Assembly: GCA_008632985.1 (NCBI GenBank)
Contig: QPGO01000037.1
Location: forward strand, 248,001-312,000
Source of the DNA: Psammoneis japonica
Taxonomy: Eukaryota
Reading direction: 5' to 3'
DNA length: 64,000 nt
The notes beneath the pieces are model-generated. The model worked only from the letters and a program-made list of their open reading frames with translations, was not told the DNA's origin and ran no database searches. Position numbers and translations under genes: made by a program. Positions 19,300 to 57,099 of this stretch are shown here, one piece after another. Each line of letters begins with the position of its first letter. The stretch's first letter is position 1.

Positions 19300-19930
19300 T
19301 GCGCTGGGCTCAGGACTCACACTTGGCACATTGCTTGGTGCACTGCTCAGTGCTGGGCTTGAACCAGAAGCTGCACTTGGGGAATCACTTGGAGCCAGAC
19401 TTGAGCCAGGTTTGCTGCTGTCATGAGTCATGTGGCTGCTGGACTCGAGCTTGGAGCATTGCTGGGTGTCAAACTCGGGGCAGGACTGGCACTTGGCTTG
19501 CTGCTTGGCACATTGCTTGGAGCTGCACTTGCAATTGGCATCAGGACTTGTGCTTGGCACGTTGCTTGGTGCATCACTCAGCACTGGGCTTGAACTAGGA
19601 GCTGAACTTGGTTAATCACTTGGTTCTGGACTTGCGCTAGGTGGCTGCTGTCATGAGTCATCGACACTGGACTCGAGCTTGGAGCGTTCTCCGTGCTGAA
19701 CTCGGGGCAGGACTGGCACTTGTCTCGGTGCTTGGCGCAATGCTTGGTGCTGGACTTGAACTAGGAGCTGCGCTTGGATGGGCACTTGGAGCGGGCTGCC
19801 AGAAGGTGCAGCAGTTTGCGGAGAAGGGGGGATCAATGGCATGACTGTTGGAGACTGGCTTGGCATCTGTGACGGTGACGGCGTCGGAGCTTCTTTTTGA
19901 TGATGACAACAACATCGGCGTTCTTCCCTG
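19300..19930 (-). pseudogene. Broken Pro/Ser/Ala-rich repeat (PSxxPSxSP, mucin/stalk-like) coding sequence straddling the domain-1 border
   Basis: APTPSPSQMPSQSPT, APSAHPSAAPSSSPAPSIAPS and APSNVPSTSP occur in shifting frames, with repeated nucleotide units (gctgctgtcatgagtca, ctcggggcaggactggcac). Confidence 0.6.
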
Positions 19931-38084: not shown

Positions 38085-38347
38085 ACGCTGGTAGTCGCTT
38101 TTCTTCTTGCATGGAGTAGCATAAGGGTATAGTGATAAGAGTCTATTCATAACTTGCGCACTCTGATCGCATCTATCACGGGTTCCGTGTAGTGAGGATA
38201 AAAGGTGAAATACAATACCACATCGAGGCTACAAAACAGGAAACAAGGATTCTTATGCATTGATTACGTAAAATGGCGAACCACAAAAGCACCATTAACA
38301 CTTTTTCGTCGAACACGAATGTGACTAATAAAACGCAAATCCCGCAT

Positions 38348-39075
38348 TTACATTTTGTAATTCTGCGCCATTTTTTCGTAGGCCAAGACAAAGGCAAGAA
38401 TGAGGGCCATGTCAACGCCGGGAGCGACTTGGACGAAGTAATCGTCGCGGCGCATATCGTCTGCAAAGTTCTGAAGTTGCATCGGGCTGCGCAATGTGGC
38501 AATGCACTGACCGCCAGCCTGTTCTTCTTCTTGGAAGGCGCTTCACCCAAGTAAATGGACCCCTCCATGGTCAAATAAGTCACCCTGGCTTCCAACAGCA
38601 CCTCTTCTCCCTTTTCGTTCTTGAGGCCCTTGGTCTTTTGTTTCGTGTTGCCAACATTGGATTCAACCTTGAAGAGCACCTCGTTGCCGTCGGCGTCCAA
38701 GATGGTTTGCGTGTCATCCAACCAAGCAATGATCTTTTCAGTCATGACAAAGACGGGCTCTTTGGTCTCGGCATCTACAATGACACGCTTGTCACGAAGC
38801 GAAAGAGCCTTTCCACCCACTTCAAAGAGAGTCTTGGGCGGATTCACCGAAACGTCCTTGACTTGATAACTATCACCACTGAAACTTGTCCAGAATTTGG
38901 CACGGAGATGGAGGAGAGGAGGTGTTTTCTGGTCCAACGGAACCACGTACTTGCCTCCCCCAAACACCGTTAGCTTGCCGGGAGGGACTGGATCAAACGA
39001 AGGTTCCACCAAAAGTTCCGTCCTTTCCGTGTCATTCTCCTTCTTGCCATCATCTTTCTTCTTGCCGAATACCAT
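38348..39075 (-). CDS. LURP-one / Tubby C-terminal-like protein (apparent 1-bp frameshift ~38531)
   Basis: KFWTSFSGDSYQVKD...LFEVGGKALSLRDKRVIVDA. One added base gives ...DDYFVQVAPGVDMALILAFVLAYEKMAQNYKM*, the typical family C-terminus. Confidence 0.85.
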
Positions 39076-40149
39076 GGTAACGAAGCAGGGTATGTCGATG
39101 CAGTCGCAAGTGTTGTGACAACCTGAAAAGAGCGCAAAAGGCCAGAGTAATGACCCTGTTCGGATTTCAGATTTTATTTTTACGGTCGGTTTCTATCATC
39201 TGTACTTCTACGGAATGTAGCTTCATACAGTACCCTGGTACAAACTGTAGGCGAGCTACAGTGTACTAACTCACAAGGTGAAGTAAGTAACATAATCCGA
39301 TGATTGTGATTGGCTGAAACGTTCAACAAGGCTTCAGCAATGTCCAGAGGGCGATAATCAACAGATGTTCGAGTTCAAGTAAGATCCGACGGACTCGCTC
39401 GAATAAAATGTGTCGCCACATTTTTGCTTTGACGTGACGACAACACTTGCCGGTGCTTGAGATAAAACTTTGAGCTTGTATGCACCACCCCTCGTCCATC
39501 TGGCATGTGAATGTTGAGTTCTGCCAAATGGCAACCAGCTCCACTGAGATTGTTGTGCTGCACCAGATCAGGTTTGAATGCCCGCCTGTCCTGGTGCTTT
39601 TCAAAAAGTCACAGTTTGGCATTCGCGCACCAAGAGCTGCAGTTGTCACCAAGTTTTACAATGAGATGCACCATTGGCTCTGGTGTTGGAGCTTCACAGC
39701 TTGTTGAACAGTGTGCATTTGGTCTTGCTGTCTCCGAACTCACCGCATGGTTGCTCGCAAACATGCAGCGCTGTCGCAGTTGGCTGTTGTTGCCGCGTCA
39801 CCTGGGCGCAGAAGCTGAAAAGTGAGCACAAGACCCGCAACTCAATCCAAGCCACAAATGCAAACTTGCCACATTGTCTGCAATTGTCAGTGCATCTTGC
39901 ACTGCAACTTTGTCTGTCTGTCCTGTGAAAACCACCTCTGACCCCAATGTTCCAACATCCAGTCCAACTGGGTCATCCATGACCAACCAATTTGTGCAGT
40001 TCTTGAGTCAAATCTTCAGAGCCATTCTTGAAACATTGACATCTGTGGCTTCTTCTTAAAGGAGGGAGGGCACAAGGAGAACTTGTTCTTGCACCTTGGT
40101 TTTGAGCGAATCCTCATTCTCCCCATTTTTCTTTTGCCAATGATGCTCA

Positions 40150-41590
40150 GATCATTGTGGTCAGAGTCCAAGGGACAAATGTTGCAAATGGTTTCCAACA
40201 CCATTGCCATCTCCATCCCTCTGGCCCACATTGGCTGCCAAGAGGCAGTTGCCCAAGTTGTCCTGAACACCATCACCATTGCTGTCATTCTGCAACAGCT
40301 TCAACACAAAAAGCTTGTGTCCCTGTCCATCAGCAGCAGCAAAGTGCAGTTTGTTTTCATCCACCATGGTCAATCACAGTGGCCTTGAATGTGAACAATC
40401 TTTGTCACCAGGATGGATGTCCACTGCCATCTCCATTCTGTGGCAGCCACAATGGATCATGAGCCCAAAGCTCCTTTCCATGTTTTCCATTGCATGCACC
40501 AAAAAGCAACTTTCTGTTGACCAGAGTCAAGCATGATGGATTGGACAAGTCTCCACCAAAGCCAATGTCTTGCACCATTTCCATTGTTTAACTCACAGGG
40601 TCATGTGCCCAAAGCTCCCTTCTCCATGTTTTGTGTTTTCAGTGCTGAAACACAGCTTTCCATCCAAGGGTGTCAAATGGTCTGGGGACAAAGACTCATG
40701 AACTCCAGGATGGATGTCTTTTGCTGTTTCCATTTTGTGTCTTGCTGGATTGTGCACCCACAGCTCAAATCCACTCGTGTGCCCACTGCAAGCTTCAAAG
40801 CAGAGCTTTCCATCCACGAGTGTGAAGTGAGATGCATGAGAATGCTCAGGACCAGGGCTGACTTCCTTTGTTGTTTTTGTTGCATCACTTGATGGATTGT
40901 GAACCCAAAGCTTGATCCCATGTGTTCTGTCATTTGCATGGAAGCACAGCGGGTGTGAAGTGGGTTGTGAACCTGAACCCTTTTCACTGGGGTTGATGTT
41001 CTTTGCCATTTTTGCGGTGAGACTCAATGGATCATGAACTCAAAGCTCTTTTCCATGTGCTCCATTGTTGGCTGAGAAGTGCAATTTTCCATCCATGGGT
41101 GTGAAATGACATGGACTTGAATGAGACAGACCAGGGTTGATGTGTTTTGCCAGCTTTGTTTTGCAGCTGACCAGATTGTGCACCCACAACTCACTTCCAT
41201 GCTTTCTGTCATTTGCAGAAAAGTGTGATTTGCCATCCATTGGTGTGAAACCCTGAGCACATGATGATCTGCACCCAGGCCAGGATTGATGTCTTCTGCC
41301 ATTGCCATCATGTTGCCTGCTTGATCATGCATCCAAAGCTCCTCTCCACAGATTTCATTTCCAAAGTCATCAGCTTCATCCCTGGCTCCAAAGTGCAGCT
41401 TTTCATTCATCAGCGTCAAGTCCCCCAAGCACAAATGTTCACCTTTTTTGTTGTGTCATGCACTGGATTGTGCACCCAAAAGCCCCCAGCACTGAAGCAA
41501 AGCTTTCCATCCATGGCAATTGTGATTCTGTCCATTGGCGCCAGTGTGGCAAATTCATCAAACTTGAATGACAAAAAATGGCATTCCATC
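40150..41590 (-). pseudogene. ELWxxDGT-like beta-propeller repeat gene with thrombospondin type-3-like repeat, pseudogenised
   Basis: Repeated ELWVHNP...AKDI(N/H)PG...LTP(M/L)DGKL(C/H)FSA units and GDGVQDNLGNCLLAANVGQRDGDGNGVG. Multiple frameshifts. Confidence 0.8.
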
Positions 41591-42249
41591 AAGTGACCAT
41601 TTGATTTTGTGCTGGTTTGCATTTCCCAAATGCCACCTTCTTGTCAGCCATTTTGATGTTGAGAGGCACCATCATTCTCAAACTCCAATGGCATCTTTCC
41701 ATGCCATGTGCTTCCACCAAAAGTTCCTTCACATTGGTGCTGCAAAAGAAGCATGTGACAAGCCAGCAAAACAACATTGTTGTTGCTCTTGTGATGCACT
41801 TTGAGGAGAGATGGGCCTTGTTGTGATTTGGATGCTGCCTTTTTTTCATTTTGAGTGGTGCTGGCATGTTGCACAGAGTGACCCATTTTTGACAAAAAGT
41901 TCTTGTTTCCTTGATGGGAGTCTTGGACATTTTGGATGCACTTGGCACTGTTGCCCTGTTGAAATGACTTGACATGCAAGCACACAACACAGAATTGCAT
42001 GCCTGGGTCATCTGTGGTTTGTGACGCACTTGGTGCCACTGCCTTGTTGAAATGACTTGACATGCTCAGGTGGCAGTCCAGCTGCACACACAATGAAATT
42101 TGATGTGTCAGTCATCTGTGGTCATTGTCATTTCTTGCAATTGTGCTGTGCATTGCAGTGCATGATGTGGCAAAGTTTTTGTTTTTTAATGATGCAGGAG
42201 TGAGAAGCAATCTCCTCTGCTGGCTTTGGCCACCCAAACATTTGCAAGA

Positions 42250-43900
42250 GACAGGAGAACCACGGTGCAGCTGAGTGGTCAATTTGGTGCTCTGCATTGG
42301 CCAGTGCTGTCCTGCTGGACAAAGGGGATGATGCACACTGCTCTGTTGCTCAGACCCTTCCTTGTGTGCACCCGTTTAACATGGCCCAAGCCAGAAAAAA
42401 GGAAGGGAAGCAAAGAAAACCTCCCAGCCACATTTCCCTGGCTGTGGAATGTGTTTTTTTCTCTCTGTGGCTGTTTTCTCATGATTGCAGTGGCACACTC
42501 TTCTGAAACACTTGAGCCACATGGCCTGCTTGACACTGAACATTGTTTGCCACATCATTGGGGCAGGCAGAAGCAGCAGACAAGGGCACACTGCCATTGC
42601 AGGGAGGGCAATAGAAGGCATGTTGCTGGGAGCTGCACTGTGCATTGCCAAGGAGCAAGTTTGCAGAGGACGAAGTTTTTGGGGCTTGCACCACAGAAGG
42701 GTGTTGTGGGTGGGATGTTGCTTGTGTTCCTGCTGAGCATGCTTGGCACACCAGAGCTTGGGGGGGATGTGCAAAAGAAGGTGCAATGAAGATGGTGCAC
42801 CACTTTGTTTTGTTTTGCTGAGCACCCTGTTGAAAGTGAAGTGCTTCATTGGAGGTGCCAAACTTGGTGCTGCACAAAGAGCAGCAGCAGAGGGTGTCTC
42901 AGATGGGAGCGAGGGGGGGGTGCTTGGCTTTGATGAAAGCATTGTTGAAATTGCTGTTTGGGCAGAAGTTTGAACTTTTGCTCCTGCAGATCACTGCATG
43001 ACTTTGTTCCAGCTGCCAAACACCAATTTCCAATTTTGCATCATTTCCATGTGCCCCACACAAAACCCATGCACACCTGGCACTCTGTGCAAAAAGCCAA
43101 CAGCGCCACAAAGCAAGCTTGCTCTGACCTCTGAGGAAGCCCTTGCCAGACTGTTGGGTGTTGGGTGCATTGCAAACATTGCATTGTTGCTGCTTCACCA
43201 TGCTTGTTGTGCAAACACCACAGCACAAGATCTCCTGTGCTGGGAGCACTCCCCTTGCTGGTCAAGGGCAGGAAGCTCAGAACAAGTGGGCAAGAATGCA
43301 CTTCCTGCTTGAGGCTGGCAATGCTGCACCCCTCAATGAAGACAACAAAGACAGCCTGTGGCAATGCCACAGTGAGCACATCAAGCAGCCCCCAACAAAA
43401 AGAGGCTTTGAGCCACCCCACTTTCTGGAACAACATGTGGTTGTACTTGCCCAGGACAAATGAAAAGCCATGCCATTGGTGCTTTGTGTGTCATCAAAGA
43501 GCCCCAGCTTGCTGTGCTCAAGATGTGTGGGTTTTTTTGACTTTTGATCTTGTGGTGCAAGACTGACAAAACCTCCCCATGAGGGTGTTTGATGTGCGCA
43601 ACAAGCCAAGTTGCTGACTTGCCTCACACTGGCTGATTTTGCAGAATTTCCATGAAAAAGTGTGGTTTTGGGGCACATGCTGTGTCTTCTCCAAGGGTTG
43701 CCAGGTGGAGACATCTTTTGAGACATTGTGGAGCTGCCACTCAATGCACGACTCTGATTGATTCAATGGGTCACAAAATTTGCCCAGCGGGGAAGATGGA
43801 AGCACACTTTTGTGTTTTGTGCAATGACCCATCATGGGGAGGCCTCTTCCTTCCTTTCTTCCATGTGCCACACAGACCCTCCATGTTGGAAGTGCTCCAA
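42250..43900 (+). repeat. Unknown repeated coding-like element, copy 1 (homologous to ~57.1-58.85 kb)
   Basis: Collinear shared blocks: cctgctgag, aagaaggtg..atgaagatgg...tttgttttgctgagca, caagatctcctg, gaagctcagaacaa, aagccaagttgctga, ccaggtgga...tgtggagctgccact. Confidence 0.75.
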
Positions 43901-45517
43901 TGGCCAAATGGCCTTTCATTGTCAATCCACAATGCCCAACTCATCTTCAATCTTGCACTGATGCCCGTGCAACCATGTGCCCAGCCCGATGACAAATGAA
44001 GTCAGCAAGCAACATCTGTGTGGAGTTGTCAAGAACAGCACAGGTGTGGCTGGCTTCAGTCTCAAGCAGGGAATTGCAGCACCATTTCACAGCCAGGCAC
44101 AAAAACATCAAATTAAGAATGCACACCATGATGTCATGCCTTGTTTGTCACCTCTCCTCCTCTGTCATCCACCAGCACAAGCCCTCATCTCTGACAAATC
44201 TGTGGTCTGGGTCTGGTGGCTGGAATGCCAGGTGCTGGGCATTCCCAGGTTGCAGCATCTTGCCATGCTCACAAGAGCCAAGTTTCCCACCTGCTGCCTG
44301 CTTGAAATTGTTGTTGATTGCATGTGGATTGATCACTGTGGCATCTGACCTGGCCTTGTGTTTCTTGCTGTGTCCCTGGCTGTGGTTGAGTGCAAAGGCA
44401 ATGTTGACATTGGGGTGCAATGCCTTTGAACAATCAACACAGTGTTCAAATTGAACAGCCACATGGTTGCATCATCAGAGTGCATGACATTGTAATGTCT
44501 GCACACATGATAAAAACACATTGCCACATCATAAAATCTGCTTGTCTGCACATGATGGTTTTTGTTGTTCGGTTGATTGTTGATCCCCTGCTGTTCTTCA
44601 TGTTTGAACACAGATGCTTTTTAATTTTTGTGCTCAGCCTTTTTCACAACAACTGACGATCTTTGATGACAAGCCAAACATTGCAGTTGCATGCAATGAA
44701 ATTTTCATCATGCAAAGTGTGCACCAATTGTTCAATCAATGGCTGTGCTCCAATTGGCCTGTTTGTCCGCATCGTCCTCTTCATTCCACATGTCTTGTCC
44801 ACTCTCTTGCAAGAATTTCAAATGCACGTGCCGCTGCCGCATTGGATGTTTCCTTGTCACTGTTCCAAAAAAGCCACACTGCATTTCTTGCATTTGGGTG
44901 AACATCATCGAGAGGAAGAGGTCCCTCGAAATGCAGAATCGCATCGCTGCTCCCCTCTTGATGTCATGTCGTCTGCTTCTTTTTCTCTTTCTTCATTTTT
45001 CCCGTCCCATTTTTCTCTTCCTTCTTTGTCTTGGCGCCGCCTGTTTTCACCGTCTCCGGCATCTTTCCATCCGAATCCTTCTTTTTCATCGATCCTGTTG
45101 CCGTCGCCTTCATCGTGTGTCACTTTGTTTTGGATCCATGTTTCTGACTTCTCTCTGTGCTGTCCCCATTTCCAAATGTTTCTTTGTGATTGTTTGCACA
45201 CGTCACTTGAAGGCACCCACGTGTTCTTCACGCACCTTAACGCACATGTAGAAATCCATGTTGTTTTCCAGTGCATGCACCCTTTCTCCTGATGCATGTT
45301 TTCACAATGTTTTCTTCCATCAATTCCACACTCCGCATTGCCCTTTCCCGGCACAATCTCACGCAGGATTTCTCTGGGAGAAGTTGCACATGCGTCTGGC
45401 AGGTTTTTGTGTGCAAAACTCCAAATCCCACCAGGTGCGCATGTGACTTCTCCCACGCACCACTCTGGTGTGTTTCCACAGAAACCAGAATTTTGTGACT
45501 GACGCACGACCAATCTG

Positions 45518-46531
45518 GTGAATGCAATGGCGGACCCACGACCACAACAATCAGAGCATCAGAAGAAAACCATGTCAGATGAACTCCGTCCATCCGCTGC
45601 TGAGGATTTCCATCGCCGGATGATGGGGACAGTTGGTGGTTTTGTTCACGCTGACGCTGCTCGTTGTTCGGAGGAACAGAGAGCAAAGGATGCAAAGGCT
45701 GCTGTGTCAAGATTGGTGGAAGCAATGGCAGAAGCCCGTTGTGCCATTGTGGCTGCAATGACCACACTTGACAGTGCTTTGTTAAATCAAGCAACAACCA
45801 CTCGCGAATTTAAGCACATCTGTGCACAGTTCATTGAGTCATCGATCGAGACACACTGTTCAGACAACGACTGTGTTGTTGCAGTGGAAAATTGCAGCGA
45901 AGCGGAAATGAGTTTCCAATGCTTTCTTCATGGCAACGCATTTGACGCAAAAGAATTGGGGCTCCCAATCTCCGTTGCAGGACATCAAAAATCAGAATGC
46001 AGGCTAAACATGCTGCACAGCTGTGACTCGACGTTGCTTCTGAGAAGCCTCAGGGCAAATTCTGACACAGACGCCAACAGAGCAGCAGAGAGGGAGCAAT
46101 CTGCGATTGACAGCATTGACAAATCCATCCACCGCCATGCCATGCCACTCCTTCGAAGGCGACATCTAACACAGCCGCAGTGCGTCCTGAAGGACACAAT
46201 CGCGTTGCTTCACGAGGCCCTCAACGATTTGACAAGGAAAGACGTTGCCTTGCAGTGACAGTGGCAAGCTTTGTATGATCTGAGGCCAGGCACAGAGCAA
46301 ATGTGGGGAGGGACATGGACCACGATCCGGGCTGTGGACGAAGAAGCCGTGGCAAGAGAAAGGGTCCTGCAGTTGGCATTGCAAATCGAGGCACAATTGG
46401 TGGCTGTCAACCAGCCTGACCACAGCGCCGACTTTCAGCAGGCGATTGTGGCTGCCAGGGAACATTTCATGGCGCAGGATGACCAAATGGACCGTGCAAG
46501 TGGACACTGCATAGAATCCATGAGGAAGTGA
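45518..46531 (+). pseudogene. Degenerate unknown ORF convergent with the Plavaka-like transposase
   Basis: 246 aa ORF plus an in-line 86 aa ORF, helical/charged, almost Tyr-free. No family recognised. Confidence 0.35.
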
Positions 46532-46775
46532 TTGCTCTAAAAACACACACACTGTGAGTGAATGACAGATTGACACGCGCATCCCACTTTAGAAACAAAT
46601 CTGACCAACACTTCCTTCTGTCCTGTGTGGCCCAAACAAATGGGGCCTTTTCTTGTGCTTCCACTGCTCCTGGACATTCTTCATAAACCAAAACATTGTC
46701 CCCAATTGCTTTGACAGGGACAACACATAACTTGGGTGAGTGCTGAGTCTTCTCAGGCATTGAAAGCCAGTTGTT

Positions 46776-49605
46776 TCATTTGTGATCAAGCTGCCAGCGA
46801 CTGACCAAGTCTGCATGCTGATGCCGTTGCCTCACAGTTCTCTGGTCAGCTTGATGAGCAGTTGGATGGACAACTGCAAAAATTGATCCTGTGTCTTCCT
46901 GTTTGAAGAAACACAGCAAACGGGAGGAAAACTGTTGATCGCCCTTTCGTGTGCCAAAGGTCACACAGGCAAAGTCACACCATGGTCCTTTGCTTTTGCA
47001 ATCAGGGTGCGCACGGCACGTGTCCCTCCCGTTTGCATTGTAAAACTCTGTCTTACAAGTCAGGTGTGCACTTTCACTGTCTTCACCAACACAATCCTCC
47101 CACTTTTCCGACATGAAGTTCAGCAACACAGGATGAACTTGGCAACGAGTGTGCCCACTGTTCCACTCAAACGTCACAGCGCTGATCCCTCGGTTGTAGG
47201 TGAGAGTGAACGTGCTTCCTCCCAGCGTGTGATTGTCCGTCCTGACTCTTGATGATTCCTTTTTCCCAGTTGGCAAAATCCAACTGTCAGCTGAAATTGC
47301 GGCGTTGAGCCTCATTTGGTCCTCCATGCGCGACACGACCTGCTTCAGAAAACTGTCGAGGTTGCGTTGTTGTGCGGCAGATGACAGCAGCTTGAAAAAG
47401 TCTTTCAAGAGACATTCCCCCAAGCCTGCGTCAAAGTTCATTGCATGTCGGCAACAATGAAGAAACACTGGGAGATGGAGTGTTTCATGAAGCTTTTGAA
47501 GCTTCCACACGCATCCTTCTGTTCGAGGGATGAATTGCACCATCCAGTCAATGAGGAGACGGATTTTCTTGTTCATTTTCTGAACAGATGAACTGGGAGT
47601 TACGCTTGTGATGGGTGGATTGCCTGGCCTGTGCCATGCGTGGAAGACAAGAAGGTCCTCGAGCAATTGAATGAATTGCCGGACGCTGCAGTTGAGTCTT
47701 TTTCCCTTGTGTTTTTTCTTTTTTTTGTTTGTCGTCACCATCCTCAGCCTCACTCTCCTCTTTCTCATCCTCATTTTCGTCCCAGTCACCCTCTTCGAAC
47801 TCCTCCAACCTTTCATTGTCAGAGTCATCCAAGTGCTCACTGGGTTGGCAGCAACTCTCAAAGTTTGCTTTGGGCATCTTGTGATTCTCTGGAACAATGG
47901 GTTCGTCTGCGTCCTCGTCAAGGAAGCATGACTCACATGCGTTTCGTCCCTCGCTGGTCAACAGGAGAAGGTAGAAAACAAAAGCCATTTCAGTCCAGTG
48001 GTGAGAGTTGAGGAAGGTGAGCGACGTTGCTCCTCCTTTGAAGTTTGTTTGCAAAAAGGATGCTTTGCAAGTTGACCAGTGATTGCTGAAAATCCTTTCC
48101 ACTGTGCTGTCCACCTCACTTGCGACCACAGGTGTCATGCTGTCTACAAATGAATTGATCACCCTTTTCAAGGTGCCGTTTTCAAAGAGATGCATCATGT
48201 CACTTGCTGTCGCAAGGGTGACGCTGTGTGGTTGTGTGCCAAAGTCTGCCTCAAAAAGACAGTTGGCAGGTGCATTGTGTTGCTTGAGGCAATGCAAGAT
48301 GCCCAACCAGTGCTTCCTTTCTTGGTCTGATCTGTTGTCATCGTTGGCCTTAGTTTGCACTTGGTGGAGATCCAGTCCTCGGACAAACTCGCATTCAATC
48401 CATGGGTCGTCCAGTCAGTTGAAGCCAGTGAGGCAAAAACAACAGCAACGTTGATGACAGTTGTGACCTCTGTGTCATCCAACGAGACAGTTGCCGCTTT
48501 TTGCATCTCCCATGATGAGAACGATCAGTGGGATTACGTGGAGGTGTCGCATCTCATCCCCTCGTTGCACGTGTGTTTTCATGCCTCCTTTTCTCATGAC
48601 TTCCAAAAGTGGCTCCAAAATGACACGCAAGCAAGTGTGGTGGTCTCTTGACGAGCGTCCCTTCTCTGCCTTGCGATTGTTTGAGAGATTCTTTGCCGCA
48701 GATGATGACATCTTTTCCAAATCCAGGAGACAACCAATTGGTTTCCAGACACTCTTGTCCGACCATTTGTTGAAGGCAACATGCGCAGAGGTCATGATCA
48801 CTGGCTCTCCGCAATGTGATCCCATCCCTTGTGTCCTGCCAGTCTTGTCGAGGTAAATGACATTGCACTCGAGAAATTGTTTCTCCGGGTCAGTCATCCG
48901 TTCTTCGTGACTGCGCCTGCACCACTCACCCGCCAAAAGGCACTTGTCATCCAGTCCCTTCGCTTTGTGCTTCCCAAAAGGATTGTCTGGATCGGCCATG
49001 TTCTCTCTGCTGCACCACAGGTGAGGATCGAGTAAAAACTGTTCCCAAACCTTTGTGAAATCCCATCTTGGCACTGACACTCGTTTTGGCAAACCGGTTT
49101 TGAAATTTTTGGTTTCTGGAGTGACAGAAATAGACTCGCTGGGTGGAAGAGGGAAATGCTTGGTTAAGGTGCACATCAACTCTTTTCTCCTTGGCAGAAC
49201 TGCACCAAGCTCAATGTTGCTGTTGCCAGTGTGCCTCTCAATGAAATTAACAATGCAATCGCACAATTCCAGGGGAGCACCGCGTGTGTCCATGAGCTTC
49301 TTGCACAACTCCATGCAAGCTCCGTCAAGATTTGTCAGAGAGGGAGCAGAAGCCAAGGCCTCTTCTGCAGGAGCGTCATGCCTGATCCCCAAATGTTGAT
49401 CCTCATCGTTGATGTCCTCTTCCTCCTCCATTGTCATGTCCAACACTGCAGCAAAGGATTGACCACCGCCAACATCCAAATCGTTCATTGCTGAAAGTTC
49501 AACTCCTTGCATGCTGTGGTTTGATGAAATGGAGGACATGTCGTCCATTCCGTGCGGTGCGTCATCCGGGGAGGGGAACAAGGGGCTGCTGCTCGGATCA
49601 CTCAT
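46776..49605 (-). mobile_element. Plavaka-like transposase, frameshifted
   Basis: VIYLDKT...GEPVIMT...WKPIGCL...HHTCLRVILEPL...IMGDAKSGNCLVG, DMMHLFENG, WKLQKLHETLHL...NFDAGLGE, and C-terminal CRAHPDCKSKGPWCDFACV. Family assigned from recalled motifs. Confidence 0.72.
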
Positions 49606-50310
49606 TGAAGATCTTGGGAATCTGCTGTGAGTTGATCACCTTGGACAGGATTCGTCATCATCAGAGGACGAAGAGGAAGAACTGCCGCTTTCTTCGGGTG
49701 GCCCCTCTGTTGTGGCAGGAATGTCACTTTGATCTGGGATTGGATCTTGGGTTTCCAACTCTTGGGCAACTGAGCAACACGTCGGTGAGCATCTCCAATG
49801 GCAGGCCATTCGCAAAAAACTTTGGCCACAACCGGGACAGAGAAGAGGGTTTCCATCCATTGCAAATCAGACAACATTGACAGGGCCTTCATCAAGACTC
49901 ATGCTCATTGTCCTTGTCTTGTGGATGAGAAGGGAAAAAAGAACAACACGCAAAAAATGGCGGGAAATTGGCAAACATTGCATTGTCTTCCAGATTGGGA
50001 TGATTCTTGTGGGCATGACGCATCTGCATTTTGATTTTTATCTGGCATCCACAATGAATGTTGTGCTTTTTATTTGCTGTCAAAATGCAGGACATCATCT
50101 CCATTGAAACGCAATGACAGCCACATCAAAAAGCAAGTTGGACCATTCGTTGTTGTGTGTGAACACATTTTCACATTTCAATGTTGCTGACAATGATTTG
50201 TGCAATGTTGTAGAGAAAAATAGAGTGCCTGGCTGTCTCAACACCACCCAAACAACGGTTGCACTGTCGAACAGCACCAATCCTCTCATTGTTGCAGTGA
50301 AAAGATCAAG

Positions 50311-51580
50311 ATGTCGTCTCCAGCACAACTGGCACAGAAGAGAAAGAAAAATGAGACTGTCAAGCCAATGAGCCCAAGACTTCAGGCAGTGTTGAAGAGA
50401 ACAGGTGCGCAGGCAGCACATGGTGCATTGAAATCAGAAGCAGAGAAGGTGGCTAGAAATGATCTCTTTCCACAGGTGAAGTTTCTCAGTCCGTCAGAAT
50501 TGGCAAGCAATGGGAGCATCTCAATGTTTGTCAACAGATTGCTGGTGGCAACATGGACACTTCAAATTGGTCAGGAACTTAGGAGGAATGGGCAAAAAAG
50601 GCGGTAAAAAGGCAAGTTGACAATCGCAGAAACACGGTGTGTTCGCTGTTGGGGCGGAGGCAATGGCCCACAAGTTGAGTGACCAATGTGTGTGATTCGA
50701 GAGTTGCGTGCATCTCACAAGAAGATGACGGTGATGCTTTGTCTGTGTGGGCATTGTCACTGAGGAAGAGGGAAAGGAAAAAGAAAAGAAACTCAAGGCG
50801 GCAGACAGGAGGAAAAAGAGGAAAAAGTCAAGCCGTGACAAGAATGAAGAGAATGACATCCCGTTTGTGCCGACATGGGATCCGTTTAGCCTGGACACTG
50901 TCGCCGGCGGTAAATGAAGGAACAAGCAGGCATGCAAGTGGTTCTGTGATCACATCCTGCCTCAAACCAAGCAAAAGCAGGCATGGAGCAGTGCCGTCAA
51001 AACTGGGAATGCACAGGTCTCACAGTTGTTTGCGGTCAGTGACGAAGCTTTGGCACCATTGGCCATGGAGAATTGTTGGCAGGTGTGGGCATGCAGGAAC
51101 AAGGAGGAGGCGGTGGAAGAATTGGGTGAGGAAATGGAGCCTGAAGAAACAAGGCCTGCCCCTCGGTGCACGAAGCCAAAGAAACAACGAGTGTCTTGGG
51201 AAGATGACTGAATCAATCGGTTCAATGATTTGTGCAAAGAGGTGACGAAAGACAGAGACTCCAAGGAGGGCAAGGAGTTTGAAAAGTGGCATGCGGAAAT
51301 CAAGAAAAGCGAGCACGAGAAGTCCGGAGAAGCAAAAAAGAAGAAAAAGAAAGCACCGACCGGTGATGCGGATGAGGTGAAGGCAATGAACAGCCCAATG
51401 GTGGAGAGCAGCAGGGATGACAATGGCAACGACGATGAGCAGGAGGAAGGTGCAAAAGGCAAAATGGACAACGGAGGAGACGAGTCCGATGGAGACGAGT
51501 CCGATGATGATCGTTGGCTTGGTTTAAGAGAGTTGCAGCAAGAAAATGTGTGCACAGTCAACATGGCACTCGGTCATTGA
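50311..51580 (+). pseudogene. Divergent companion ORF of the Plavaka-like element
   Basis: ARNDLFPQVKFL, FAVSDEALAPLAMENCWQVW, PRCT, W...INRFNDLCKEVTKDR and an acidic tail. Same TpA-lost, CpG-kept signature as the transposase. Confidence 0.5.
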
Positions 51581-53498
51581 ACTGCAGATGCAACAAGGGA
51601 TTGACTCAACCGATGAAATGCTTTTCTTGTTTAAAACAATGTTTGCGAAAATTGACAAACCAAGGATTGTGTGGAAATGCAATCGCGCATTGGCACATGG
51701 CAACAAGGTGGAGGCAGATGTGGTGATGTGGATGCAGTGAAAAATGGCACACACAATTCTCAACAAGTTGTTGCAACATTGGTGTGGCAAACTTGCAACC
51801 AGAGGTTGGCCTTTCATCATGTGACGACAATGTTTTGCAACATTTTGACAAATTGTCATCATGTAAATCCACACATTTTTAACATTTTGTGCACTCTGAT
51901 GATGTCCAGTGTTCCTCATTTGTGGTGCCAAGTTTGAAGCAAAATGCAAAAGGCAAGCCAGCAAGATCTTTCTTGTCTCTCTTTGCCAAAATTGATTGCT
52001 TTGGCCGCTTCCTCATCTGCATGTGCTTTCCCTCTTTTGTGGTTGTTGGTTCTTTGCAGCTTGTCAAAGTGAGTCTGAAGTCCAGCTCTCATTGCTGTGA
52101 AGTGGTGCTAAAACCATTGCTGGCACCCCTTCTGTCTTTAGATGCAATGCTTGCCTGCCATTCAGTTCCACCCATTTTTGGAAACCCCCATGCCAGCATG
52201 AGATGCTGGGAGTGCACAACAACTTTGTCTTGTTGGGACAGAAAGAGTGGCTGTTTTTCTCTGGTTTTTGAGTGCTCGAGTTTCCTCCAAATTGACAGTC
52301 ACATGTTTCTTGGTGATTTCATGGAGGAAATCAAAGTTGTCAACATGAAATTCAGTGTCCTTGGTGCAATGGAAACCATGGTCATTGTCAGCTGGCATCT
52401 TTTCCTCCACCTTGAATGCTCCTGTCTCTGCCTTTGTGAGCTGGGTGCTGCACCCACATCTGTGATGCCACAGCTCCATTTGGGCAAGGGACTCCTTTGT
52501 TGGTTCAGATTTTTTCTTGGAGCACTGCATCAGGTTGTTCATGGCCATCAACACAAATTTTTTTTTCATGTGTCATGCTCAAAACCCAAGCATTTCAACA
52601 GCCACCAGCAGTGCCGTCCAGTTGTTTTTGACACTGCCTTGTCGCTGCAGCACCTGACAAGGATGTCACAGAAAAGAGCCAAGTTCTCATCTTCAGCATC
52701 TTTCTGTTCATGGAATTTTTCCACAAGTTCTGGGATGGCTGTCTTGCTCAAACAGTCAGATGCCATTTGGAACGCAAGATCTTCAAGGTTGCTGATGTGG
52801 CACGCACCTGGCCCTTTCCAGCTTCTGAAAAATGCTCAAACAAGTCAGGCAGTTTTTTCTCTTGCTTTGGTGGCATGGGACAGAGGGAAATGCCCATGGT
52901 TGCTTCTGAGCTGAGTGTTCCAGGCTCCAACAGCTGCTGCTGTTGCAGCTTGCACAGCTCCTGGCGTGCTTCTTGGCTGGGTGCTTTGCGCTGTCCACAT
53001 CTGACCTGAGCTCCATGCCAGTTCTTCAAGAGCACACAAACAGGACACACACACACATCAGTGCATCTTCTCCACATGCACAGCTTTCATCCCATGATGC
53101 TGTCTGAGGGAGGGGTGCTGGAGTGTGAAAAAAGCGAGAGTTGGCAGCATTTCACCGTGGCTGTTTTTGGCACAAGATGGTGATGACAGCAACAACAGCG
53201 CCTGTTTTGGCAATGGTGGGAGCAACAGCATCGGGCACACCAGTCAAAAGAAATGCAGGGGGTGAAGTCAGCATTTGTGCCTTTGCCTGTGGGAGGCAGC
53301 AGAGCAAAAAATGACAGCACCAGCTTGTGGGTTCTCACCTCATGCGAGGGACAACAGACGATTAGGGCCCTGCGCCTTTACGCGACGCGACGATACGATT
53401 TATGCACGTCTGCGTACGTGCGTCGACCGCGTCGACCGTGTCCGTCGCAAGCCAAGCCGCCAAAAGCACAGCGACAACGGGTATGGTATGAAGCAAAA

Positions 53499-54307
53499 CG
53501 GTGCTTGGCGATGAGAACCCGACCACATCATGGCAGTTATCAAGCAACCAATCAACTTGGCGAGATAACACCGAGAGAGGGCCACTACTCTAGGTTGGCG
53601 AAGTCGTCATGAAATCGATAAGTGAAAACGCGACAAGCGCTTTCGAAAAATTGTCTTCGAGAGAATCAATCAACGAGCAACGAGGATATATTTTGTCAAT
53701 AAATGTTTGCCAACGTTTATGGTAAAGGGCAAATACACTCGCGGTTTTTTCAAAGACAGTGTCTCCCAAGAAGTCGATCGCGGAATTGTTAACAGAAACA
53801 ATAGCACCGATAAATGTTGGCCACAAGCAAGGATATTCTCAACATATATTTATTGCTGATAGAGACAAAGACTTCCAAGACCTCGACGCAGAAAGCCAAG
53901 CAACCAATGCCCAATCACCTCGTGAGGAGGCACCTTCGGTGCTTGGCGATGAGAACCCGACCACATCGTGGCAATTGCCGTCGAAGACTTATCATTTAAG
54001 GAGTGGGCAGGGGAGGGCAACTGGTGCCAGTCACATTGTTTATTGAGATATAACACCGAGAGAGGCCACTAGGTTGGCAAAGTCGTCATGAAATCGATAA
54101 GTGAAAACGCGACAAGCGCTTTCGAACAATTGTCTTCGAGAGAATGAATCAACGATGATAAAATTTTGTCAATAAATGTTTGCCAACGTTTATGGTAAAG
54201 GGCAAATACTCTCGCGGTTTTTTCAAAGACAGTGTCTCCCAAGAAGTCGATCGCGGAATTGTTAACAGAAACAAATGGCACCAATAAATGTTGGCCAACA
54301 TTTATTG
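53499..54307 (+). repeat. Recent tandem duplication (~53499-53823 and ~53937-54297) ending in a perfect 26-bp palindrome
   Basis: Near-identical blocks cggtgcttggcgatgagaacccgaccacatc and aagtcgtcatgaaatcgataagtg...gttaacagaaaca. caataaatgttggccaacatttattg at 54282-54307. Confidence 0.92.
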
Positions 54308-56440: not shown

Positions 56441-57099
56441 CGAGTGAGGTTCTCCTGGGAGTGAACACAAGGCGACTTTGTGCCTTCATGCTGGCGATTG
56501 CGCGCGTGGTCGCGGTACCACTTTCTATGGCCCCGGGTCCGTTCGATTCCCTGGTCTCTCTGAGCTACGCGTCGAATGTGCTTAGGACTGCCTTACATGT
56601 GGAATCGCCCTCGCCAGAAAGTTGAGATGATATACACATTTAATGGTTGATGCATGAAAAATCTTAGAAGACAGGATGTCACGGGTGATGAGATGTTTGC
56701 CGGCAAGAATGCCCACTCGTTCCTCCTTGCAGGTGTTCACATTTATAGAGTTGTCACATCTTAGTAGATCATGTGTTCAACGCAAAGCAATCATTCGCGA
56801 AGGACATTAGTCTCTCTAGAGAGCAGCCCTTTCTCAATGCTTTGTAGTCTCTAGCCGCCCATCGCCATCAATCCAATTCACCCTGCCGCATGAATCCTGA
56901 GAGAGATGTCACCGACCATCAACACACACATCACAAAGCACTTTTCACGACATGAGTTCACGTGTGCCGCGGAAGCACGAGACAAGGAGGCCTGTGGCTG
57001 GCTCCAAGTTCATGAAAAACGAAGAGGAAAAGGGAAGAGAAAAAGAAAGATCACATTTGTGCTGACACTGAGCTCAAAAAATCCATTGCTTTGTTAAAC

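Follow-up and report, generated by a model that had tools for sequence, protein, structure and literature searches.

The closest described system is the rhizarian alga B. natans, in which integrated giant-virus and virophage DNA undergoes A:T to G:C hypermutation restricted to TpA (Mettrop et al., bioRxiv 10.64898/2026.01.13.699255). According to the accessible part of that preprint, the de novo rate is raised about 1000-fold, the process is on in some lines only, and an ADAT2/TadA-like enzyme is the candidate. The same accessible text makes no mention of CpG, diatom, boundary, border or flank and gives no flanking-base preference; the supplements may hold contexts. In fungal RIP, gene DNA next to repeats is also mutated, and this leakage extends over at least 930 bp in Neurospora, as described in the available portion of Van de Wouw et al. 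(2010, PMC2973834). In the diatom Phaeodactylum the CG methylation of transposons depends on DNMT5a, according to the sections at hand of Hoguin et al. (2023, PMC9998398). No report of TpA hypermutation in a diatom was found in the literature searched, where nothing came up beyond the B. natans preprint and papers on RIP in fungi and from which subscription journals were mostly absent.

In our study, a window of 64,000 nucleotides from Psammoneis japonica (C38:248001-312000 of a 91-Mb genome) was analysed within a sample of 824 kb, comprising the window, its 200-kb flanks and six stretches on other contigs with arbitrary positions. The window has been found to consist of gene-rich DNA alternating with blocks without TA and CG, which are rich in TG and CA:

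0.4-19.9 kb, TA- and CG-depleted block
39.5-53.4 kb, TA- and CG-depleted block
56.9 kb to the end of the window, TA- and CG-depleted block
39480..53360 (C38:287480-301363), TA-poor block delimited as an HMM segment, with 52 TA in 13.9 kb

In the 824-kb sample, normal DNA carries about 40 TA (40.2), about 54 CG and 146 TG+CA per kb, against 3.1, 7.8 and 228 per kb in core DNA. The TA-poor share is about 46% of the sample, with TA down to about 8% of normal. An assembly artefact was ruled out, as short-read contigs carry the same TA-free letters (39415-39837, for example, with 2 differing letters and 1 gap), in one public sample which may be the assembly's own. These contigs differ from the window at 38517 (an extra base, within the neighbour gene of the 39.5-kb border) and at 39413, 39479 and 41577 (single letters); the C at 39479 turns the last TA of this border into CA, and such differences may reflect an allele, a strain difference or an assembly error. 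Silicon-transporter genes gave 24 matches in the genome (best 697 bits), and a single open frame of 1511 amino acids at C38:226311-230342 was found to hold three silicon-transporter domains in tandem. Triplicated SITs are known in diatoms.

As far as the accessible preprint text allows comparison, the likeness to B. natans is that TA changes to TG or CA only, on both strands and regionally, leaving TA-poor, CA- and TG-rich clusters which include transposon genes. The A:T to G:C change is confined to TpA here too, in pairs chosen for one TA-poor copy, and the gain of CpA and TpG is likewise confined to regions (core TG+CA 228 against 146 per kb). The two cases differ in that the present host is a diatom, about 46% of 824 kb is TA-poor and CG decay overlaps with the loss of TA. 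The targets so far identified here comprise one family of LTRs, a Plavaka-like element and host genes that are dead; those described in B. natans are integrated viral or other foreign DNA. Rates were measured directly there, according to the same text, whereas here they are known from footprints alone.

The sequence-only reading had likened the block borders to RIP leakage. The geography of this likeness holds: mutated-repeat blocks, sharp composition borders and mutation reaching adjacent gene DNA are common to both, as far as the available RIP account describes them, and the rims here take in copies of host genes as well as a stretch for which no second match was found. The chemistry, however, is opposite, as RIP makes TpA from CpA and here TpA is destroyed: TpA/ApT is 0.05 in the cores (0.62 in normal DNA) and (CpA+TpG)/(ApC+GpT) is 2.01 (1.24 in normal DNA). 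In RIP both duplicates are mutated, whereas a linked pair on C12 is one-sided, which speaks for existence and not for frequency, the pairs having been selected as one-sided. RIP leakage also fades outward, whereas here the loss of TA stops abruptly and that of CG ramps, a contrast to which the bias from anchoring on TA applies. DNMT5-type methylation, in the available part of PMC9998398, is comparable in that CG is lost to TG and CA in transposon-rich diatom blocks of a genome with C5-methyltransferase genes; here PF00145 gave 27 matches, of which several lie in open frames 389-753 amino acids long. The CG to TG/CA transitions grow with divergence here, as in CpG decay driven by 5mC. This system covers the inner, slow signal only, and the available part of that paper is without mention of TpA.

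The direction of the TA process was read from 47 alignments of a TA-poor with a TA-normal copy, a selection which inflates the loss of TA and not that of CG. TA was found as TG at 197 sites, CA at 164, CG at 3 and other at 55, and was kept at 47, i.e. 361 of 419 changes were to TG or CA. In the 12 pairs which are at least 83% identical, A>G was seen at 158 of 401 sites after T, against 31/946 after A, 76/1788 after C and 24/829 after G. This A:T to G:C direction, established from paralogs, bears out the earlier proposal of a TpA-specific mutator distinct from CpG decay. An origin of halo CG from TA hit twice was ruled out by the 3 such cases among 419 changes. The survival of TA in the cores differs strongly by context, from 0.50 in TTAA through 0.25 in CTAA, 0.11 in CTAG, 0.08 in GTAA, 0.05 in ATAA and 0.04 in CTAC down to 0.02 in ATAG, 0.01 in GTAC and 0.004 in both ATAC and ATAT, and the mutated A is the one before a pyrimidine (43:9, 27:7, 46:19 and 31:13). 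A steady state with an R-TA-Y preference fits the survival and strand tables (deviance 8.8, 9 df), whereas a single finite dose was rejected: it describes survival in the different contexts (deviance 4.6, 6 df) but fails once strand choice is added (22.8, 9 df), and its dose values are therefore no linear clock.

In the same 47 pairs, CG was found as TG at 180 sites and CA at 145, and was kept at 331. C>T before G was seen at 104 of 690 sites in the 12 closer pairs, against 0.02-0.03 otherwise (53/1788 before A). Two context-specific transition processes are thus observed in these blocks, along with their direction, their relative speed and the offset of their borders. In the five youngest pairs (less than 5% diverged), 50 of 58 TA sites are lost (8 kept) and 71 of 83 CG sites are kept, while the background shows 21 differences among 1061 sites. 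With rising divergence the kept share of CG runs 0.86, 0.50, 0.36, 0.35 and 0.06, and that of TA stays at 0-0.15; the TA/CG rate ratio is about 13, a lower bound because TA is saturated. A direct repeat of 411 bp on C12 (C12:337627-338037 and C12:356176-356586, 95.6% identical and 18.5 kb apart) was observed in which one copy has lost 13 of 17 TA and 2 of 23 CG with 1 background difference, its partner being TA-normal. In a cluster bootstrap of the 47 pairs, the retention of CG depends on distance from the edge (coefficient -1.4, CI -2.25 to -0.47) and on divergence (-0.66, CI -1.65 to -0.28), while the retention of TA showed no effect of distance.

Borders were collected by a symmetric rule, which asked, within 2.5 kb, for at least 1.5 kb normal in both signals and at least 1 kb low in both; the 0.4-kb border of the window and others lacking either part were left uncounted, and 60 borders resulted. 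At 43 of these the CG edge is placed inward of the TA edge and at 17 outward (p=0.001), with a median offset of 109 bp, and the expectation that the offset would be non-random in sign is upheld. Offsets exceed +100 bp at 31 of 60 borders, fall below -100 bp at 8 and lie within 60 bp at 17; the change-point intervals are disjoint at 13 positive versus 2 negative borders and overlap at the other 45. The last-added 160 kb, taken alone, gave 10 positive borders out of 12. The CG density just inside the TA edge (20-120 bp) is 35 per kb, against 54 in normal DNA and 8 in the core, and over the first 1.3 kb it declines through 35, 28, 20, 16, 14 and 11 per kb towards the core value of 7.8. TA stands at 3-5 per kb throughout inside the edge and at 47-48 per kb just outside, without a fading tail, in a profile where anchoring on TA sharpens TA. 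Halo widths are highly variable among borders and showed no correlation with the distance to the next ORF (rho -0.18, p=0.18). The median distance from the TA edge to the nearest long normal ORF was 328 bp, and 4 of 60 edges are crossed by one; 41 of 60 such ORFs have the 5' end toward the block, a count which stop-to-stop and antisense frames may bias.

DNA low in TA and high in CG makes up 151 kb of the sample, against 2 kb for the reverse state, and much of it forms multi-kb stretches and not rims. Within the window, the interior stretch 44768-51687 (35 TA, CG o/e 0.57, a weak Plavaka transposase match) is the rim state distant from any edge. Other TA-poor stretches several kb long, in which CG is close to normal (o/e 0.86-1.0), were seen at C38:377232-384708, C2:228709-235464, C9:400884-412247 and C24:201819-209697. 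The first of these starts with 126 bp which are 95% identical to the DNA just past its other end, with 1 TA against 7 there.

Four borders in the window had been cited as examples of a TA-free halo in which CG persists, and these are resolved as follows:

39480 (interval 39430-39675), TA change point of the first border; the last TA before the block is 39479..39480
39840 (interval 39810-39910), CG change point of the first border; the last CG of the rim is at 39836
19300..19930, minus strand, second rim, a decayed host gene with Pro/Ser/Ala tandem repeats and a CG gradient
56855..57022, third rim, 0 TA and 9 CG, offset +125 to +152
53140..53360, not a rim, 0 TA and 5 CG, CG o/e 0.33, on a multi-copy repeat at 53090-53340

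At 39485-39850 the near absence of TA is confirmed (1 TA, P=7e-6 versus normal 40 per kb) and both quoted motifs, attcgcgcac and tgccgcgtca, are present. CG does not persist in full but is kept in part: its 13 CG (o/e 0.52) exceed what the core density of 7.8 per kb would give (P=1e-5). The halo claimed at 56860-57030 stands with 0 TA and 9 CG, and no second copy of this rim was found by DNA search. The return of CG before TA at 19.2-19.9 kb was likewise recovered (4 TA, 25 CG; the intervals around its offset of +272 to +295 are wide). In the 19.3-19.8 kb gene, CG kept relative to the closest paralog was 0/5, 2/7, 3/8 and 6/8 from inner to outer (trend p=0.006), and 9 of its 11 TA sites are lost. 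The halo claimed at 53140-53360 did not survive, as it holds only 5 CG and its edges coincide (TA 53360, CG 53345, offset +11 to +15 bp). A local tandem duplication of about 440 bp lies at 53490-54300, in TA-normal DNA just outside this block, and has a related copy on C68. At the border near 0.4 kb the order of the edges is slightly reversed (TA 426, CG 341), and their intervals overlap. The halo observation is therefore real but overstated, and the nesting is modest and not universal.

The rim at 39480-39850 is not a plain flank, being composed of a dead gene and an LTR:

38176..39075, minus strand, neighbour gene of normal composition with a weak LURP-one-related match, start about 400 bp outside the TA edge
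39457..39683, minus strand, dead copy of a host gene, its 3'-terminal part, with 1 TA and 4 CG in 39485-39683
39679..39683, left target-site duplication, TCTGG
39684..39957, solo LTR-like repeat of 274 bp, bounded by TG...CA and splitting the dead gene, 0 TA and 9 CG
39958..39962, right target-site duplication, TCCAG, with CA at the centre against TG in the left copy
39958..41350, minus strand, remainder of the dead host gene (tblastn match, 5 stops), inside the TA-/CG-free core

The gene belongs to a family of repeat proteins with a TSP type-3 repeat, which we take to be the 'ELWxxDGT-repeat' family and which has intact members elsewhere in the genome; the part at 39457..39683 shows 71-74% identity to L004 and to an intact 533-aa ORF in L080. 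The TA edge lies about 20 bp inside the end of the dead gene and about 400 bp from the start of the intact neighbour. In the gene part of the rim (199 bp), 1 of 14 paralog CG sites is kept, 7 are TG or CA and 6 are other, where about half of the control dinucleotides are kept; 8 of 9 paralog TA sites are TG or CA and 1 is kept. Further in, at 40200-41500, none of 45 CG sites on which both closest paralogs agree is kept. All 9 CG of the LTR-like repeat lie within its outer 166 bp and account for 9 of the 13 halo CG. The outermost gene part is thereby CG-poorer than the LTR further in, and the CG ramp is non-monotonic at this border.

The LTR-like repeat has at least 41 matches (40 scored of 197 candidates). 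In its aligned part the window copy holds 9 CG against 0-5 in the 29 best-matching copies; it has kept 7 of 14 outer and 0 of 5 inner CG-class sites and none of its 5 TA-class sites. This difference between outer and inner CG was unseen in other copies. Some positions mix TG and CA among copies, and the copies have therefore been hit independently. One more LTR copy, a partial one located at a different border, has retained TA as well as CG. The LTR copies as a distance series (near 3, mid 10, far 18) showed no difference between near and far (p=0.26, with few near copies). Paralogs carry TCGAG at the unsplit target site. A central TA would keep the leucine codon of the paralogs and yield each target-site copy by one step; a central CG also yields both copies, but with the residue altered. 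As the two copies differ as TG against CA, the TA process has probably struck both of them on opposite strands after the insertion, judging from the letters of this one site. No allele empty of the LTR was found among the 15 joints listed of 29 in the short-read contigs.

We lean towards a reading in which two clocks of unequal speed run in the same silent blocks and one fading edge produces the nesting. The fast clock is a targeted A to G change at TpA on either strand (TA to TG or CA), best at R-TA-Y and worst at TTAA, which, as the paralogs show, wipes most TA ahead of background divergence. The slow clock is CG to TG/CA, at least about 10 times slower and probably due to deamination of methylated C; that 5mC deamination drives the loss of CG is inferred by analogy with diatom biology. 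At the edge of a block there would be a few hundred bases in which the silent state is younger or less strong and in which the fast clock would be saturated and the slow one not, placing the TA edge about 100 bp (0 to more than 1000) outside the CG edge. The TA edge most likely lies outside because the TA-erasing process is far faster than CG decay. The 39480-39850 rim would then be the end of a dead host gene with a later LTR insertion keeping half of its outer CG sites, and as CG in the rim is already partly lost, the rim is probably methylated too. A mutator reaching past the methylated core, as had been proposed, agrees with the offset, which is real, but the nesting needs no such reach when TA loss is at least about 10 times faster. 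A one-ramp simulation gave a median offset of 91 bp (observed 109), with 0.47 of borders above 100 bp (0.52) and 0.13 below -100 bp (0.13). Its misfits are the TA in halos (7.3 versus 3.2 per kb observed, z=-2.9, the worst of 20 statistics) and an excess of TA in the first 100 bp (z=-2.4). Against a fading edge also speaks the window LTR, which has lost one TA kept by 18 of 30 other copies (a single site) and yet is the most CG-rich relative to the 29 best-matching ones. So do the non-monotonic CG ramp at the 39.5-kb border and seven edge-near pairs whose CG retention shows no gradient within the pair.

It is possible, at distinctly lower probability, that the two signals have separate footprints, the TpA mutator being guided by something other than 5mC which ends sharply some 100-300 bp outside the methylated DNA; histone marks, small RNA and a processive tract along single-stranded DNA are candidate guides. 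The TA pressure is 0.4-0.8 of its core value at 20-320 bp inside the edge, against 0.09-0.29 for CG, in a TA-anchored profile; halos of 100-750 bp have core-level TA (21 in 6673 bp) with near-normal CG; two-ramp fits give 112-223 bp for TA and 303-604 bp for CG; TA-poor stretches with CG o/e of 0.86-1.0 exist; and the accessible B. natans text (bioRxiv 10.64898/2026.01.13.699255) reports TpA changes with almost no G:C to A:T in the same regions. However, anchoring sharpens the signal on which it is done, and anchoring on CG reverses the picture; the rims have already lost part of their CG; and two-ramp simulations, which match TA better than the one-ramp one, under-produce reversed borders (0.05-0.07 versus 0.13, z=2.1-2.6). 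Over a shared sharp edge, latent-edge models gain +69 to +78 lnL with one ramp and +85 to +87 with two, and with per-border widths +136 against +147; two ramps thus gain +9-16 lnL over one, only about 10, under a Poisson model which ignores overdispersion. Unequal speed largely explains the nesting, and a genuinely wider TA footprint is possible in addition.

Age and content could also act without any role of position, the rims being younger or CG-richer pieces, such as recent inserts and LTR ends, which happen to lie at edges. The placement of 9 of 13 halo CG in the inserted LTR agrees with this, as do a halo of +1030 on C12 holding a copy only 0.3% diverged from its partner, the wide variation of halo widths and the absence of a within-pair CG gradient in seven edge-near pairs (outer 82/133 versus inner 79/128). 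But the 19.3-19.8 kb gene has its CG gradient internally (p=0.006), the distance effect persists after allowing for divergence, and the window LTR keeps CG in its outer part and none in the inner, unlike other copies; we consider this account improbable. That the edges simply coincide and the offsets are change-point noise might be read from the 17 of 60 borders within 60 bp, the 8 reversed ones, the 45 overlapping intervals and the one of four cited examples that fails. A simulated shared edge, however, puts 9-15% of borders above +100 and 6-12% below -100, with a median of +4 to +9 against 109 observed (z=9.9), the latent-edge models gain 69-87 lnL and the replication gave 10 of 12; chance is already refuted in the 60-border sample and retains next to no probability.

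Under the two-clock reading, the enzyme behind the TA loss has an about even chance of being a DNA adenine deaminase, by analogy with the proposal for B. natans; a modified T or A which is miscopied would be expected to leave the same footprint. No special adenine-mutator enzyme was found among the 6 deaminase ORFs typed of 9 family matches, the best TadA score among the six being 133 bits, below the cut-off of 150. Deaminases acting on tRNA are to be expected in every eukaryote. The T-A-pyrimidine context may resemble the preference of TadA-derived editors, a likeness for which the literature searched gave no confirmation. A fusion of a deaminase domain with a 2OG-Fe(II) dioxygenase was observed on C79 (L144:1-1191, minus strand). 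It was ruled out as the mutator, as its closest relatives of solved structure are guanine deaminases and such fusions occur widely, being common among the homologs listed, several of them from diatoms. The part at hand of Iyer 2011 (PMC3239186) contains no mention of dioxygenase or diatom.

A more speculative picture, possible but less likely than not, is that of a DNA adenine editor with R-TA-Y preference whose guide is a silencing mark which precedes CG methylation and does not depend on it. Blocks would creep outward from transposons, TpA would be wiped first from neighbouring copies of host genes and these would be methylated later, as in a reverse-RIP defence whose front is the rim.

The mutator is the striking part of these results, and the nesting is less surprising, being largely explained by unequal rates. 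In the literature searched, TpA-targeted A:T to G:C hypermutation is described in one rhizarian alga only, and here it has rewritten nearly half of the sampled DNA of a diatom, including dead copies of host genes, and occurs alongside CG decay. The R-TA-Y rule provides a fingerprint by which the enzyme could be sought; should the deaminase reading be true, this enzyme would be a natural mutator of adenine in DNA. The rims offer a way to test whether the mutator follows 5mC or another mark.
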